Below are positions 4,445-9,024 of a stretch of 64,000 nt of DNA, piece by piece. Made by a program: the position numbers and the translations under genes. Every line of letters starts with the position of its first letter. Position 1 is the stretch's first letter. The stretch comes from Spirosoma fluviale (GTDB lineage: Bacteria > Bacteroidota > Bacteroidia > Cytophagales > Spirosomataceae): positions 107,337 to 171,336 of the forward strand of contig CAMDJW010000003.1 of NCBI GenBank assembly GCA_945901025.1. Direction: 5' to 3'. The notes under the pieces were generated by a model. The model was given only the letters and a program-made list of their open reading frames with translations, searched no databases and was not told where the DNA came from.

Positions 4445-5278
4445 ATGGGTTTAAAAGAGATGAGTAATTTACAGCAGAGAGTCATTGCAGCAATCGTCGC
4501 TGTGCCATTTTTGCTCTTTTGCGTGCTTTACAGCGATTACACTTTTTTAGCTCTTTTTCTATTTATTGGCGTTTGTGCCCAACTAGAATTTTACAAATTA
4601 GTAGGAAGTTTTGGGGGGAATTTGCCACTCACTTTTTATGGTACTTTTTGTGGGGTTGTCCTTCAATTATTAACTTTTTTTATTGAAAAAGGGGAAATTG
4701 GCTACCATAATTATTACATACTCTCGCCCTTGTGTGCGCTGATTTTTTTCATCAAACTTTATAAAGCCAAAGACGAAAAGCCCTTTAAGAACATTGCCTA
4801 TACATTTTTAGGCATTATCTATGTGGCCTTGCCTTTTGCGCTTTTAACGGTGTTGGCTTTCATCCAAAATGATAACTATGACCCCAACATTGTTTTGGGT
4901 TGCTTGTTTTTGCTTTGGGCCAGTGATTCAGGAGCTTATTTTGCTGGAACGAAATTTGGCAAAACGAAATTGTTTGAGCGAGTTTCTCCCAAAAAATCGT
5001 GGGAAGGAAGCGTGGGTGGTTTAATTGCAGCCATGGGGGTTGCTTACATTATTTCCATGTATTACACCAATTATGCTCCTTGGCAATGGTTTTCCATTGG
5101 TTTTATCATTGTTGTGGCAGGGACTTATGGTGATTTGGTAGAATCTTTGTTTAAGCGAAGCATGAATATCAAAGATTCAGCCAATACCATCCCAGGACAT
5201 GGAGGCTTTCTAGATCGCTTTGATGGCTTGCTTCTATCGATCCCGTTCATCATTACCTTTTTGAAATTATTTACTTAA
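4445..5278 (+). CDS. cdsA: Phosphatidate cytidylyltransferase
   Basis: SPKKSWEG, GDLVESLFKR, KDSANTIPGHGGFLDRFD signature. Confidence 0.95.
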   Translation: MGLKEMSNLQQRVIAAIVAVPFLLFCVLYSDYTFLALFLFIGVCAQLEFYKLVGSFGGNLPLTFYGTFCGVVLQLLTFFIEKGEIGYHNYYILSPLCALIFFIKLYKAKDEKPFKNIAYTFLGIIYVALPFALLTVLAFIQNDNYDPNIVLGCLFLLWASDSGAYFAGTKFGKTKLFERVSPKKSWEGSVGGLIAAMGVAYIISMYYTNYAPWQWFSIGFIIVVAGTYGDLVESLFKRSMNIKDSANTIPGHGGFLDRFDGLLLSIPFIITFLKLFT

Positions 5279-5336
5279 GCATGTGTTTAACTAATTTTAA
5301 TACCTAGCTCCAGATAAAATTCGTTTAATTTGTAAA

Positions 5337-6050
5337 ATGTTAAATAAAGGCCTCGTTTTTACGCTACTATTTTGTTTGTCCATGGGAAAAGTATTCTCTC
5401 AGGGGCAGGATAAAACGATATTATTCCAAGTGCAAATTGTGGCCAACAATGGATCTGAGTATTTGCCGATGGCCTATGTATATAATCCGAAAGCAGGTAG
5501 GGGAGCATTAAGTGATAATTTCGGCCGAGCAGATTTATTGGTTTTTCCTGGTGATAGCCTTGTTTTTACTTATATAGGCTACAAAAAACAATATTACATC
5601 ATTCCTAAGTCAGTGGAGCAGGTCCAACAAAAAATCATTTCCATGGATGAAGATTCTAAGATGTTGGCCGAAGTAAAAGTATTTCCTCATGCTTCCGAAG
5701 AGGAGTTTAAACAAGCATTTCTTAATATGCGTTTGCGGGATGAGCGCCAAAGAGCCATTTTGGCTAATAACCTAGAACAGTCTAAGTTGAACGTTTTTGC
5801 GCTCCAAGCAGGATTAGGGGCGGCGTCTAATTTCCGGAATTTCTCTGATATGATGACCTCGGCTCAGTCCAATAAGTCTTTTTACGCGAGTCCTTTGTTA
5901 TCTCTCACTAATCCCTTCGCTTGGATGAGCTTTATTCAATCCGTCAAGAATGGAGATTTGAAAAAGAAAGATTGGAAGAAGGCTTATGAATTTATGCCTA
6001 AAGAAAATATATCGAGGCAAATGTTTTTACGAGATAATTCGAATAATTAG
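5337..6050 (+). CDS. Secreted carboxypeptidase-regulatory-like domain protein
   Basis: Signal peptide; G..SD..G.....V.PGDSLVFTYIGY pattern of CarboxypepD_reg-like domains. Confidence 0.7.
   Translation: MLNKGLVFTLLFCLSMGKVFSQGQDKTILFQVQIVANNGSEYLPMAYVYNPKAGRGALSDNFGRADLLVFPGDSLVFTYIGYKKQYYIIPKSVEQVQQKIISMDEDSKMLAEVKVFPHASEEEFKQAFLNMRLRDERQRAILANNLEQSKLNVFALQAGLGAASNFRNFSDMMTSAQSNKSFYASPLLSLTNPFAWMSFIQSVKNGDLKKKDWKKAYEFMPKENISRQMFLRDNSNN
6012..6050 (+). repeat. Left copy of a 39-bp imperfect direct repeat (last 13 codons of the upstream gene)
   Basis: tcgaggcaaatgtttttacgagataattcgaataattag; 34/39 identical to 7326-7364. Confidence 0.85.
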
Positions 6051-6140
6051 GGTCGATTTATCTAACTCGTGCTAATCATCACAGAATCCAGTCCCCATGG
6101 AATTGAATTCATTGAGTAATCCAAGAATAAAAGATCAGGA

Positions 6141-6228
6141 AATCATTTTATCGCTCAAAATCTAATCATTTATCGCTCATATTATAGCTTTTGTGAGCGA
6201 CAAATTATATTTTTGTGAGCGACAAATT
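6141..6228. promoter_or_regulatory. Four-box TCGCTCA/TGAGCGA operator-like array upstream of the HTH-Fic gene
   Basis: tcgctca at 6151 and 6173; tgagcga at 6194 and 6216 (spacings 22/21/22 bp); 18-bp direct repeat ttttgtgagcgacaaatt at 6189 and 6211. Confidence 0.6.
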
Positions 6229-6232
6229 TAAA

Positions 6233-7282
6233 ATGGCAAAGAAACCTACCTTTTCTACTACTGAGATTCTTGAATATATTAAGAATAATCCTCTATGCTC
6301 TTCCATTGAGATATTAAGTGGCATAAGTCAAGAAATGAGTATTGCGACCTTGAAAAGGGTATTGCAAGATTTAATTTCATCCTCTTTAGTGAATAAATTG
6401 GGTGAATTGAAAAATAGGCGATATGAAATTAGTCCCGTTTATGAAATTATCAGACCTATTGACGTCAATCAGTATTTTGAAAAAGAGATAGACGAAAGAA
6501 TTATTCAAGATAGATTTAATCATGAGTTGATGAGTGAAACTCTTAGGACGATTTCTTTATTTACCGATAATGAAAATGATTATTTAATTGCTTTGCAAGC
6601 TCAGTTTAAATCAAACTCTTCAAAATTATCTAGTAGTGAATATAAAAATGAGTTAGAACGGTTAGCCATAGATTTGAGTTGGAAGTCATCTCAAATTGAG
6701 GGGAATACCTATACCTTATTGGAGACTGAGCGACTTTTAAAGGATAAAGAAACTGCTGCAGGTAAGACAAAGGATGAAGCGATCATGTTATTGAACCATA
6801 AAGACGCTTTAGACTTTATAATAGGTCATCCTGAGTTTATTAAGCCAATAACGGTTTCGAGTATTGAAGATATTCATAGTATATTGGCTAAGGATTTAGG
6901 TATTACAAGAAATATCAGGAGGGGGAGGGTTGGGATTTCTGGTACCAACTATAAACCGTTGGAAAATGAGTTTCAAATTAAAGAAGCTCTAGAATCAATG
7001 TGTGTTGTTATAAATGCTAAGGAAAGTATTTTTGAAAAGGCATTGTTAGCGCTTATGTTAATATCTTATATACAACCTTTTTCAGATGGAAATAAAAGAA
7101 CTGCTCGAATAATAAGTAATGCTATTTTGATGAATAATCACTACTGTCCTATTTCATTTAGAACCATTAATTCAATAGAGTATAAGAAGGCTATGTTGAT
7201 TTTTTTTGAGCAAACCAATATAAATCCTTTTAAAAATGTGTTTATAGGTCAATTTGAATTTGCTGTAAATACTTATTTTTAA
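6233..7282 (+). CDS. Fic family protein with N-terminal winged HTH
   Basis: HTH (SIATLKRVLQDL), inhibitory SSQIEGN, Fic loop QPFSDGNKRTAR; start taken as ATG 6233 (ORF track GTG 6215 lies inside the repeat). Confidence 0.9.
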   Translation: MAKKPTFSTTEILEYIKNNPLCSSIEILSGISQEMSIATLKRVLQDLISSSLVNKLGELKNRRYEISPVYEIIRPIDVNQYFEKEIDERIIQDRFNHELMSETLRTISLFTDNENDYLIALQAQFKSNSSKLSSSEYKNELERLAIDLSWKSSQIEGNTYTLLETERLLKDKETAAGKTKDEAIMLLNHKDALDFIIGHPEFIKPITVSSIEDIHSILAKDLGITRNIRRGRVGISGTNYKPLENEFQIKEALESMCVVINAKESIFEKALLALMLISYIQPFSDGNKRTARIISNAILMNNHYCPISFRTINSIEYKKAMLIFFEQTNINPFKNVFIGQFEFAVNTYF

Positions 7283-7305
7283 GATAATCCTAAAACTTAG
7301 TAGGG

Positions 7306-7342
7306 TCGCCTCGAAATCAATCATTTCGAGGCGAATGTTTTT
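7306..7342 (+). terminator. Intrinsic terminator after fic
   Basis: Perfect 12-bp stem tcgcctcgaaat/atttcgaggcga, 5-nt loop, then atgttttt. Confidence 0.7.
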
Positions 7343-7364
7343 ACGGGATAATTCAAAAAATTAA
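7326..7364 (+). repeat. Right copy of the 39-bp direct repeat
   Basis: tcgaggcgaatgtttttacgggataattcaaaaaattaa; reads SRRMFLRDNSKN* versus SRQMFLRDNSNN* in the left copy. Confidence 0.85.
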
Positions 7365-7386
7365 GGCTAAGTTTTACGATCAATCA

Positions 7387-7612
7387 TTAACAATTTTTCT
7401 CTATCCACTCCTTCGGCGTCATCTTAAATTCGCTTTGAAAGGCCACAAAAAAGGATGATTTATTCTTGAATCCACATTGTGTTCCAATGCCTTCAATGGA
7501 CATTTTTGTGGGTACCCGCTTTAAACAATTCAATTGCATACTCCACGCGTTTACTTTTACTATATTCAGGATATGAAATGTTCAAATCTTTGTTGAAACA
7601 ACAAGAAGAAAA
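7387..7612 (-). pseudogene. AraC-family regulator C-terminal HTH remnant (frameshifted, 5' truncated)
   Basis: Minus strand reads FSSCCFNKDLNISYPEYSKSKRVEYAIELFKAGTHK, shifts frame in an A-run, then MSIEGIGTQCGFKNKSSFFVAFQSEFKMTPKEWIEKNC*; in-frame stops upstream. Confidence 0.8.
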
Positions 7613-7658
7613 TCAACCTTTTATTACTTAAGTTCTTAAGTAAATTTATTTTGACACC

Positions 7659-8396
7659 CTACCGAAAACCTATTATGGCTAGCATGCGCCCGGTGATTCC
7701 TTTCTCCTTGCGATGGGAAAAGAAAAGGTCGTTGTTTTCAATGGTGCAATAGTCCGAAATTTCAATTTGGGAAATTCCAATGTTTCTCAACTGCGCTTCA
7801 TTGCTTGCTTTTAAATCTACATGCCAACGAGCACCCCGCTTTTCCTTAAAATCAAACTGCTCTGCCACTTCATCGCCCACTTCAAAATGTGCCAAGCTAA
7901 TGCAAGGGCCGATATAGGCCATTATGTCGGCAGGATTAGAACCCTGGGAAATCATCGCGGAGGCGGTTTTGGAAACGATTTGAGCGACGGTTCCTTTCCA
8001 GCCAGCATGGATCGCAGCCGCACAACCACGCAGGGGATCGGCCAGTAAAATTGGACAACAATCCGCTATGCCAACTCCCGCAAAAATACCTGGTGCATGT
8101 GCGATTATAGCATCGTATCCTGAGGTATATCCAGGTTCTTTCGTTTCCCAAATAACATCTGCATGAACCTGATAGGACCGCGCAAGCGCCTGAGGGGAAA
8201 TACCTAAATCACGACAAAAAAGAGAAAGATTTTGTTGGACCATATCCGGATGATCATCCGTATGAATGCCCAAATTTAGCGTCTGATAGGCCGCTGTACT
8301 TTTTCCTCCGTGGCGAGTGCTGACACCCGCCACGAGTTGAGGAATATGTTTGAAAATGGTAGGAATAATGACTCTTTCCGAAGAATTAGTCATCAT
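7659..8396 (-). CDS. pgeF: PgeF/YfiH (laccase-domain, FAMIN-like) protein
   Basis: STRHGG, LNLG, QVH, ADCCPILL, AAIHAGWKG, GPCIS..FEVG, FFSHR...GRM motifs. Confidence 0.92.
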   Translation of the reverse strand: MMTNSSERVIIPTIFKHIPQLVAGVSTRHGGKSTAAYQTLNLGIHTDDHPDMVQQNLSLFCRDLGISPQALARSYQVHADVIWETKEPGYTSGYDAIIAHAPGIFAGVGIADCCPILLADPLRGCAAAIHAGWKGTVAQIVSKTASAMISQGSNPADIMAYIGPCISLAHFEVGDEVAEQFDFKEKRGARWHVDLKASNEAQLRNIGISQIEISDYCTIENNDLFFSHRKEKGITGRMLAIIGFR

Positions 8397-9024
8397 AACT
8401 CAAACCATATTGCTTTAATACATCCGCTGGAACACCTTTCCACTCATTCGGTGTATTTCCTTTATACCCTAAATCATCAATACCAATTCTGGAGGTATAA
8501 AAACCTGTCGCAGTTAAATTACGCATCAACGTAAAAAAGTTAACGCCTTGTGAGAATTGCTTTTTCGCCTTTTCAGGGTAGGCAATATCATCTACGATAT
8601 TGATTCGCTGAGCAGGTGTGATCTGCGTAAACAACTTAGAAAAGCGACGATTCGATTCGCTATCCAACCACCTCAATCCCCCACGAACAGGAGTTTTGAA
8701 CTCTGGCTTATCTTTCACAATAAACTCAATAAATCCAGTTACGCCAGACTGCGACGCACTTCCAGATTTTTTATCTGCCGGAATGATGATGTCCGAAAGG
8801 ATGGTAATAGTATCTAATTCATGTTTGTTTAAAAACACTTCGGCCATCAATTTAGCATCTCTTTCTGCCTCATCTTTGGTTCTTCCACCTGGAATTTTTA
8901 AGGCTGCAGCTTTAGGAACGCCATTGGCATTTTCCAATTGCTCCATCGCTCTTGCATCCGGATTTAAAACGGCTAATCCTAAGGAACTTAAACCGATATT
9001 TTTTAAATAATCTCTTCTTTTCAT
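8386..9024 (-). CDS. Gluconate 2-dehydrogenase subunit 3 family protein (Tat small subunit)
   Basis: MKRRDYLK twin-Arg signal; IIPAD..SGSA..GV..FIEF and FF...RNLTATGFYTS motifs; adjacent to the GMC gene. Confidence 0.88.
   Translation of the reverse strand: MKRRDYLKNIGLSSLGLAVLNPDARAMEQLENANGVPKAAALKIPGGRTKDEAERDAKLMAEVFLNKHELDTITILSDIIIPADKKSGSASQSGVTGFIEFIVKDKPEFKTPVRGGLRWLDSESNRRFSKLFTQITPAQRINIVDDIAYPEKAKKQFSQGVNFFTLMRNLTATGFYTSRIGIDDLGYKGNTPNEWKGVPADVLKQYGLSYDD

Follow-up and report, generated by a model that had tools for sequence, protein, structure and literature searches.

The 64,000-nt window examined here (contig CAMDJW010000003.1 of assembly GCA_945901025.1; coordinates are those of the window) carries at 6051-7325 what is best read as a strain-variable islet with a single defence or toxin-like gene. 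It consists of a putatively autorepressed cassette, in which a winged helix-turn-helix (wHTH) domain is joined to a Fic domain, and about 90 nt of older spacer. Two copies of the 3′ end (the last 13-18 codons) of the upstream host gene, 'CPDreg', enclose it. Across 64 genomes of the genus Aquirufa and 53 lake-metagenome contigs, a single junction is found empty, occupied by Fic, occupied by the gene pair AbiEi/AbiEii or decayed, in genomes that are 88-99% identical in their flanks. On balance, we lean towards a history in which a founding illegitimate insertion duplicated its target, and in which homologous exchange, gene conversion, replacement of the cargo and deletion then acted at a hot spot between convergent genes. 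Read in this way, the locus offers a well-resolved natural case of a tiny defence or toxin-like gene being gained, swapped and lost without mobile-element machinery, and a reminder that an att-like repeat is no proof of site-specific integration. The region is laid out as follows.

5337-6050, + strand: host gene 'CPDreg', an intact open reading frame (ORF) of 237 aa for a secreted, lipoprotein-like product with a CarboxypepD_reg-like domain
6000-6052, core 6012-6050, + strand: repeat copy 1, which is the host gene's functional 3′ end and includes its last 13 codons
6051-6139, no strand: left spacer, old and non-coding, common to the Fic, AbiE and decayed variants and missing from empty sites in a 13-genome alignment
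6128-6232, + strand: operator/promoter array of Fic, with a palindromic box 0 (about 6128-6143) and four boxes
6233-7282, + strand: wHTH-Fic gene, 349 aa, PF02661
7282-7308, + strand: third partial repeat copy, made of host gene end and the first left-spacer bases (AGATAATCCTAAAACTTAG+TAGGGTCG; compare 6032-6056)
7306-7344 including a T-run, + strand: terminator-like hairpin with a 12-bp stem and a 5-nt loop, the stem-loop itself at 7306-7334
7314-7366, core 7326-7364, + strand: repeat copy 2, a displaced non-coding gene end that runs into the native junction of AraC allele 2
7365-7607, - strand: remnant of an AraC-type membrane regulator (allele 2) with its C-terminal helix-turn-helix; ORF 7387-7539 matches HTH_18/HTH_AraC
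7659-8396, - strand: pgeF/YfiH-type gene (PF02578, E = 1.9e-70), the ancestral convergent partner of the host gene

An insertion at a convergent-gene junction

The initial annotation of this stretch had reported a 39-bp duplication of the host gene's 3′ end, and this is borne out. Segments 6012-6050 (TCGAGGCAAATGTTTTTACGAGATAATTCGAATAATTAG) and 7326-7364 (TCGAGGCGAATGTTTTTACGGGATAATTCAAAAAATTAA) are identical at 34 of 39 positions and translate as SRQMFLRDNSNN and SRRMFLRDNSKN, respectively, and a repeat search extends the pair to 6000-6052 and 7314-7366, 53-55 nt long at about 81% identity. Chance does not account for the match, as its local alignment score of 29 compares with 9.9 ± 1.0, and at most 13.5, for shuffled flanks. 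It is also the sole pair of its kind in the whole 2.64-Mb genome (blastn-short, E = 6e-6), where the remaining matches to the repeat are merely 12-16 nt of noise and where a search turned up the repeat, the spacer and the operators nowhere else. The annotation's inventory of the islet stands: four operator boxes, the wHTH-Fic gene and the terminator-like hairpin are all present. It can be extended by the older non-coding spacer of about 90 nt, the third partial repeat copy and the double use of copy 2 as a terminator arm. The AT-richness that had been noted by eye is real, but modest (G+C 0.315 for 6051-7325 and 0.310 for Fic, against 0.384 for cdsA, 0.387 for the host gene and 0.378 for the genome).

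The annotation had further proposed an insertion, to be checked by alignment for an empty site. Relatives and lake contigs do display a single-copy gene end that runs into AraC, alongside several occupied forms of the junction.

Empty: G023, G018:C216, L072-L078, L112, L120 and L121; a full-length membrane AraC converges on the host gene about 20 nt from its end
Fic islet with both copies and AraC allele 2: G000, L070 and G070; the L070 contig ends within Fic and includes copy 1 only
Two-copy Fic islet beside AraC allele 3: L114
Two-copy Fic islet in a less closely related species: L079/L080, with 82% amino-acid identity in the host gene
AbiEi/AbiEii in place of Fic, with the same spacer and operator boxes: G009, G018:C121 and G064 (Pfam, PADLOC)
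Decayed forms that run into pgeF: G003, L081, G076 and L071; G075 retains the first eight Fic codons

The AbiE genes form an adjacent pair matching PF11459 and PF17194 (1e-56 and 1.3e-31) and PF08843 (6.2e-28), and PADLOC identifies them as AbiEi (5.8e-87) and AbiEii (5.7e-111). In one population of metagenome-assembled genomes (MAGs), two contigs that share 98.9% identity along 359 nt of host gene include one with and one without the islet. Copy 2 and the bases downstream of it (TAAGGCTAAG...) match the junction of the empty sites with AraC allele 2 (L078, L121), and the allele type of copy 1 (..SNN*) is also seen at an empty site, L077. Because copy 2 matches the allele-2 empty junction and strains differ by the islet, the islet is an insertion and copy 2 the displaced resident gene end. 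Neither do all relatives carry an occupied site, nor does a local tandem duplication explain the second copy better.

A variant of the latter explanation holds that a unit of about 60 nt, which starts at GCCT in codons M-P and ends a few bases beyond the stop, was tandemly duplicated first and that foreign DNA was inserted between the units afterwards. Removal of 6056-7307 does make the units abut head to tail (..TTAGGGTC|GCCTCGAAAT..), and the insert closes with a 24-nt partial copy of the unit end. Yet the bare tandem duplication is found at 0 of about 12 empty sites and the first ~15 nt of unit 2 are only weakly similar to the gene, and we consider this order of events very improbable. The partial copy, which holds 24 nt of gene end, is succeeded by the same six bases as copy 1, GGGTCG in the window and AGGTCG in G070. 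Its GATAA(T/C)CCT portion also lies 3′ of the stop codon in homologues from other families, so that the third copy may in part be the cassette's own flank.

The wider setting offers an account of why this gene end is the site of insertion. The host gene and pgeF are convergent in Aquirufa genomes of more distant kinship, and in this ancestral layout their 3′ ends overlap by 24 nt on opposite strands (G015, L015:2164-2187), whereas the species group of the window has an AraC-led block between the two genes. The segment of the old overlap, AATTAAGGCTAACAT, is present both past the host gene stop and at the pgeF end, which still aligns with the duplicated segment. Since the earlier AraC block also left a duplicate of the overlap, the Fic islet represents a second insertion round, again duplicating the host gene end. 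A duplication that spans the target leaves the gene whole, so selection for intact convergent genes would explain the events seen here. Where the initial annotation saw an element targeting a protein-coding gene, a convergent-junction hot spot combined with selection for keeping both genes whole gives the better explanation. Nested duplicates of an originally overlapping convergent gene end log successive insertions in this way, and could be used to find similar hot spots.

In these respects the locus resembles known defence hot spots between core genes: one junction holds Fic, AbiEi/AbiEii or nothing, occupancy varies by strain with exchange across species, and G070 has a second Fic at the far end by pgeF. 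It differs from them in that the site is the end of an originally overlapping convergent pair and that each insertion round left a nested duplicate. The far end of the same variable region is also where a second, unrelated Fic gene of DUF4172-Fic-wHTH architecture, with the canonical motif HPFEDGNGRIGR, lies directly beside pgeF (L063:2361-3437, corresponding to G070:C185, and L071:5878-6948).

Origin of the islet and its later exchange

The segments of the islet differ in age. Among G000, G070, L114 and L079, divergence at four-fold sites is 0.32-0.73 in cdsA and the host gene and 0.01-0.07 in Fic. Spacer positions 6057-6139 share 0.66-0.86 identity among Fic-bearing genomes, about the neutral level, and the AbiE genes (G009, G018, G064) diverge at four-fold sites about as much as their flanks. 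Because of these differences, the islet is old at the locus, with a recently moved part that covers just ~6130-7310, inside the repeats. The annotation had suggested an old event or a divergent donor att site, and with the former the neutral-like divergence of the spacer beside copy 1 agrees. Simple vertical inheritance of Fic is ruled out by the four-fold-site divergence together with the protein tree.

Only one transfer can be dated and delimited, that into L079. Compared with L114, identity of L079 is about 0.75 across cdsA and the larger part of the host gene, then 0.93-1.0 from window position ~5940-5967, which places the left breakpoint inside the host gene, at least 45 nt upstream of the repeat. 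The high identity spans both copies and falls at ~7477, within a remnant of AraC allele 3 and about 100 nt past copy 2. The host C-terminus of L079 is that of the donor (..MFLRDNSKN*), whereas its relatives have ..MYLRGAANK*. One junction is a ramp of identity and the other an abrupt end, as expected of one homologous and one non-homologous joint, and the import is a chromosome fragment that crossed over homologously at its left end and was joined illegitimately at its right. Homology-facilitated and double illegitimate recombination upon uptake of foreign DNA are known experimentally in Acinetobacter, Streptococcus pneumoniae and Pseudomonas stutzeri. The L079 event shares with them a homologous anchor with an identity gradient, here in the host gene, an opposite joint in unrelated DNA, and duplications or deletions in the recipient that vary in size at the joint; it differs in being reconstructed from natural populations only.

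The two repeat copies also interact by recombination. In L079 they are identical (41/41), and in the donor type L114 they have 4-5 differences, which points to gene conversion between copies. Read in the frame of the host gene, copy 2 is ISRQMFLRDNSKN* across the four Fic-bearing genomes, bar one change in the window, a pattern expected if the functional copy has converted it repeatedly.

Together, these comparisons suggest the following course. Illegitimate recombination without site specificity would have placed foreign, AT-richer cassette DNA in the final ~55 nt of the host gene, either with homologous crossing-over at the left end and an illegitimate joint at the right end or through an event of the template-switch type. 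With the target duplicated, the gene would have stayed complete on the upstream side (copy 1) and a useless gene end would have been stranded downstream (copy 2), and only those events that spared both convergent genes would have survived. Later, as the comparisons show, chromosome fragments passed between Aquirufa lineages by ordinary homologous recombination; subsequent events include a recent sweep of one Fic allele, replacement by AbiEi/AbiEii, transfer to the distant species, conversion from copy to copy, and deletions. Copy 2 now serves Fic by providing the 3′ arm and U-tract of its terminator.

Several observations weigh against this course. The joint between islet and copy 2 is at one position despite different AraC alleles (G000/G070 versus L114); the preferred course has to explain this by one origin with allele replacement or gene conversion afterwards, and a site-specific or Campbell-type mechanism would yield it for free. 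The empty sites L078 and L121 resemble the left half of copy 1 and the right half of copy 2 of G070, meeting around AAATGTTTTTA. The founding event is not observed, and no microhomology is demonstrable at the founding joint; the cassette flank GATAATCC and the gene's GATAATTC do resemble each other.

The first of the alternatives thereby raised is a site-specific islet, for which the gene end acts as attB, the islet carries attP, and a tyrosine or Xer-type recombinase is encoded elsewhere. The initial annotation had offered a similar reading: an att site used by a minimal element or by a cassette mobilised in trans. Like islands bounded by attL/attR in tRNA genes, tmRNA genes and protein gene 3′ ends, the islet has direct repeats of the last codons, an intact, restored target gene, AT-richer cargo and single-copy empty sites. 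Its right joint lies at one position in both AraC backgrounds, AAATGTTTTTA is common to copies 1 and 2 in all four Fic-bearing genomes with empty sites that look recombinant around it, an 11-5-11 palindrome (7307-7333) lies just to its left, and in Chitinophagaceae the homologous cassette occurs in arrays of units ending like a tRNA 3′ end. It is unlike such islands in its 1.3-kb size, its single gene, the lack of integrase and excisionase, its variable remnants and exchange tracts that do not end at the repeats.

The description of the islet as integrase-less is confirmed, with no integrase in or near it. Fic is its sole gene, and the three PF00589 genes of the genome, two Xer-like and one unlinked gene of 401 aa, are all on other contigs; beside the last there is no tRNA and no similar sequence, and a tblastn search with all three against 130 related loci, a weak test, returned just one Xer-like match. 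The boundaries are not constant between independent occurrences either. Right-hand remnants of the gene end measure ~15 nt (G009/G018), ~15 plus 17-24 nt (G064), 24 nt (the third copy) and 39-55 nt (copy 2), and the AbiE variants share the left end of the Fic variant, but lack the hairpin and the Fic right joint, with a shorter remnant in its place. The L079 breakpoints fall outside both repeats, while the recently exchanged unit lies inside them and the spacer, which would adjoin attL, is neutrally diverged. The palindrome is degenerate in L114 and L079, and the shared 11-mer encodes the conserved residues QMFL and would be conserved in any case. In view of the lack of a recombinase, the variable remnants and the outlying breakpoints, we hold a site-specific origin to be unlikely.

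Other site types fared no better as candidates. No tRNA or tmRNA is found as a target at the window locus by reading or Rfam, and Rfam gives no match in 5000-8500 at E <= 1, left spacer included. An integron cassette was rejected, with by eye no GTTRRRY/RYYYAAC pair at the boundaries and no further flank copy in the genome; by eye the palindrome is unlike the dif consensus, and dif-like or attC-like readings of it are unconvincing. The islet does recall integron cassettes, including clusters of attC sites lacking an integron-integrase (CALIN), and integrative mobile elements exploiting Xer (IMEX) in being a small integrase-less unit with toxin-like or defence cargo, and in the cassette arrays between repeats in L128. 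It differs in that, by eye, the boundaries have neither R''/R' cores (GTTRRRY) nor a dif-like 11-6-11 arrangement, and in that its repeats are local target copies which differ by lineage.

RecA-dependent cycling of the Campbell type is the second alternative. Recombination between the copies would excise a circle with one copy, and a single crossover with an empty gene end would reinsert it. Such a cycle would explain fidelity to the site without an integrase, the recombinant-looking empty sites and the same joint beside different AraC alleles, and the copies do interact, being identical in L079 and varying in copy 2 only synonymously, apart from the one window change. The available homology, however, is just 39-55 nt at 81-90%, a poor substrate for RecA; the cycle leaves the first insertion unexplained, as well as the divergence of the spacer versus the near-identity of Fic, and the L079 event brought in flanking chromosome on both sides. 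We doubt this explanation too, and continue with the illegitimate insertion and subsequent exchange as our preferred account.

The Fic subfamily and its operators

The islet protein is a member of the Fic/Doc family (PF02661 at residues 206-299, 51.8 bits against a gathering cut-off of 24). Its Fic motif, QPFSDGNKRTAR, lies at 7073-7108 (residues 281-292) and has a Gln in place of the catalytic His, followed by a Doc-like GNKR. All 78 homologues read (L123-L202) carry Q(P/A)(F/Y)xDGNKRxxR, and SSQIEGN is unchanged in 70 of the 78, most others having a one-residue variant. The canonical HxFx(D/E)GNGRxxR with its His occurs neither in the window protein nor in any of these homologues. Because the Gln is invariant among them, loss of the catalytic His is a family trait and not decay, and these proteins form a conserved non-canonical Fic subfamily.

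PADLOC gives partial matches to SoFic (1.8e-17) and PDC-S04, the NCBIfam Fic equivalog models score far under their cut-offs, and the closest solved structure is human FICD (E = 1e-12). The protein is like SoFic and Doc in its PF02661 fold, in the SoFic match, in the inhibitory-helix-like SSQIEGN, in GNKR and in its stand-alone gene. The differences are the Gln in all members read and the N-terminal wHTH with an operator of four to five boxes. Given the SoFic and PDC-S04 matches and the presence of AbiE as alternative cargo, one may guess at a toxin-like or abortive-infection role.

The operator is as regular as the motif. In the window, TTATCGCTCA stands at 6148 and 6170 and TGAGCGACAA at 6194 and 6216, ahead of the start codon at 6233. 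Upstream of the homologues read across Bacteroidota (L123-L149), the layout recurs as two forward and two reverse boxes, often with a palindromic box 0, and the reverse boxes end 5-8 nt ahead of the start codon. The box sequence itself shifts with lineage (TTATCGCTCA, TTATCAATCA or TATAGCTCA). This conserved layout supports autoregulation by the wHTH domain, which probably binds the four or five boxes and would repress its own promoter. At the other end of the gene, the hairpin folds with z = -3.5, and 0 of 200 shuffled sequences fold equally well. Copy 2 opens with the 3′ arm and T-run of this hairpin, whose stem is less perfect in G070, L114 and L079.

The gene is foreign. It is present in just 9 of 64 genus members, and in the Fic tree, where families are freely mixed, the window protein groups with that of a Flavobacteriaceae MAG (support 97/94), apart from a second Aquirufa Fic clade (100/100). 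No close relative of Fic was found in a phage collection or in IMG/VR, and one copy of 58% identity is on a Bacteroides finegoldii plasmid. The subfamily without His combines strong horizontal spread with a tightly conserved autoregulatory operator layout. The second Aquirufa clade lies upstream of hemN in L057, L058, L059 and L140, and not visibly in L060. Several of these hemN-linked loci are bracketed by hairpin sequence resembling repetitive extragenic palindromes (TAGAGTAGAGATGGGGTA), including an exact direct repeat of 19 nt.

Homologous cassettes and neighbouring genes

Repeats are also found around related cassettes elsewhere. Of 67 homologous cassettes from other lineages, 17 lie between significant, lineage-specific direct repeats made of local sequence, versus 2 of 212 shifted windows at the same loci, an imperfect control since most of these windows are core coding DNA rather than recent insertions. 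In Ferruginibacter, a 213-nt direct repeat of 96% identity (L138:4555-4767 and 6282-6494) brackets the Fic cassette. This pair is unique in the complete 5.2-Mb genome, and covers the promoter, with a palindromic operator region, of a downstream operon for a membrane protein and a small helix-turn-helix protein. The 53-nt pair of L171 consists of the following gene's start codon and signal peptide, and the repeat of L152 is a terminator hairpin. In a Chitinophagaceae MAG (L128:1-5700), four copies of a 50-150-nt unit separate MNT/HEPN, Fic, GNAT acetyltransferase and other cassettes. The unit ends in GGTTCAAATCCCGGTCTCGCTACA, which resembles a tRNA 3′ end; ARAGORN and Rfam called no intact tRNA or tmRNA in the Chitinophagaceae arrays. 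Repeats in such cassette arrays were also seen in L126, L129, L130 and L133.

Either target duplications of tens to hundreds of bases are a common outcome of recent illegitimate insertion in these genomes, or the cassette has an insertion route of its own. The second option, taken furthest, would make the wHTH-Fic(Gln) cassette a phylum-wide mobile unit that generates variable target duplications of 19-223 nt by an undescribed mechanism, perhaps a cassette-linked activity or a replication template-switch, with the Aquirufa repeat as one instance. The excess over control windows, the uniqueness of some pairs in their genomes, the lack of a recombinase nearby and the range of duplicated targets (gene 3′ end, gene 5′ end, terminator, promoter region) speak for it. 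Against it, no conserved terminal motifs were seen just inside the direct repeats of 12 cassettes, and the controls are not recent insertions; some flanking pairs, moreover, partly overlap repeat families. We regard a phylum-wide unit as quite improbable. The unusually frequent long local duplications around these cassettes may nevertheless point to an insertion route outside current island and transposon models.

The host gene itself is kept downstream of cdsA in 40 of 41 relatives. Its Pfam match to CarbopepD_reg_2 (E = 7.8e-6) is under the gathering score, and its N-terminus gives weak BamP/SusC matches. On the other side of the islet, the AraC remnant, within 7365-7612, comprises ~80 codons with an open frame of merely 50 aa, whereas full-length allele 2 genes of 389 aa are present in G070, G064, L078 and L121. 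Homology of the window to G070 stops at 7607, and the window has lost most of AraC and everything up to pgeF by deletion. The deletion joint lies beside the remnant, and the segment removed held, besides the remainder of AraC, a porin-like gene and large adhesin-like genes.

The membrane AraC regulator exists as three alleles with 41-65% protein identity (L032:7009-8178, L061:4664-5833, L114:3083-4246, L075), and genomes with different alleles are about 90% identical in neighbouring genes. Another variable patch lies 3′ of the imported islet at L079:7886-10699, where a SLOG/DUF2493-like gene, two unknown genes and an IS3-type transposase fragment are found.

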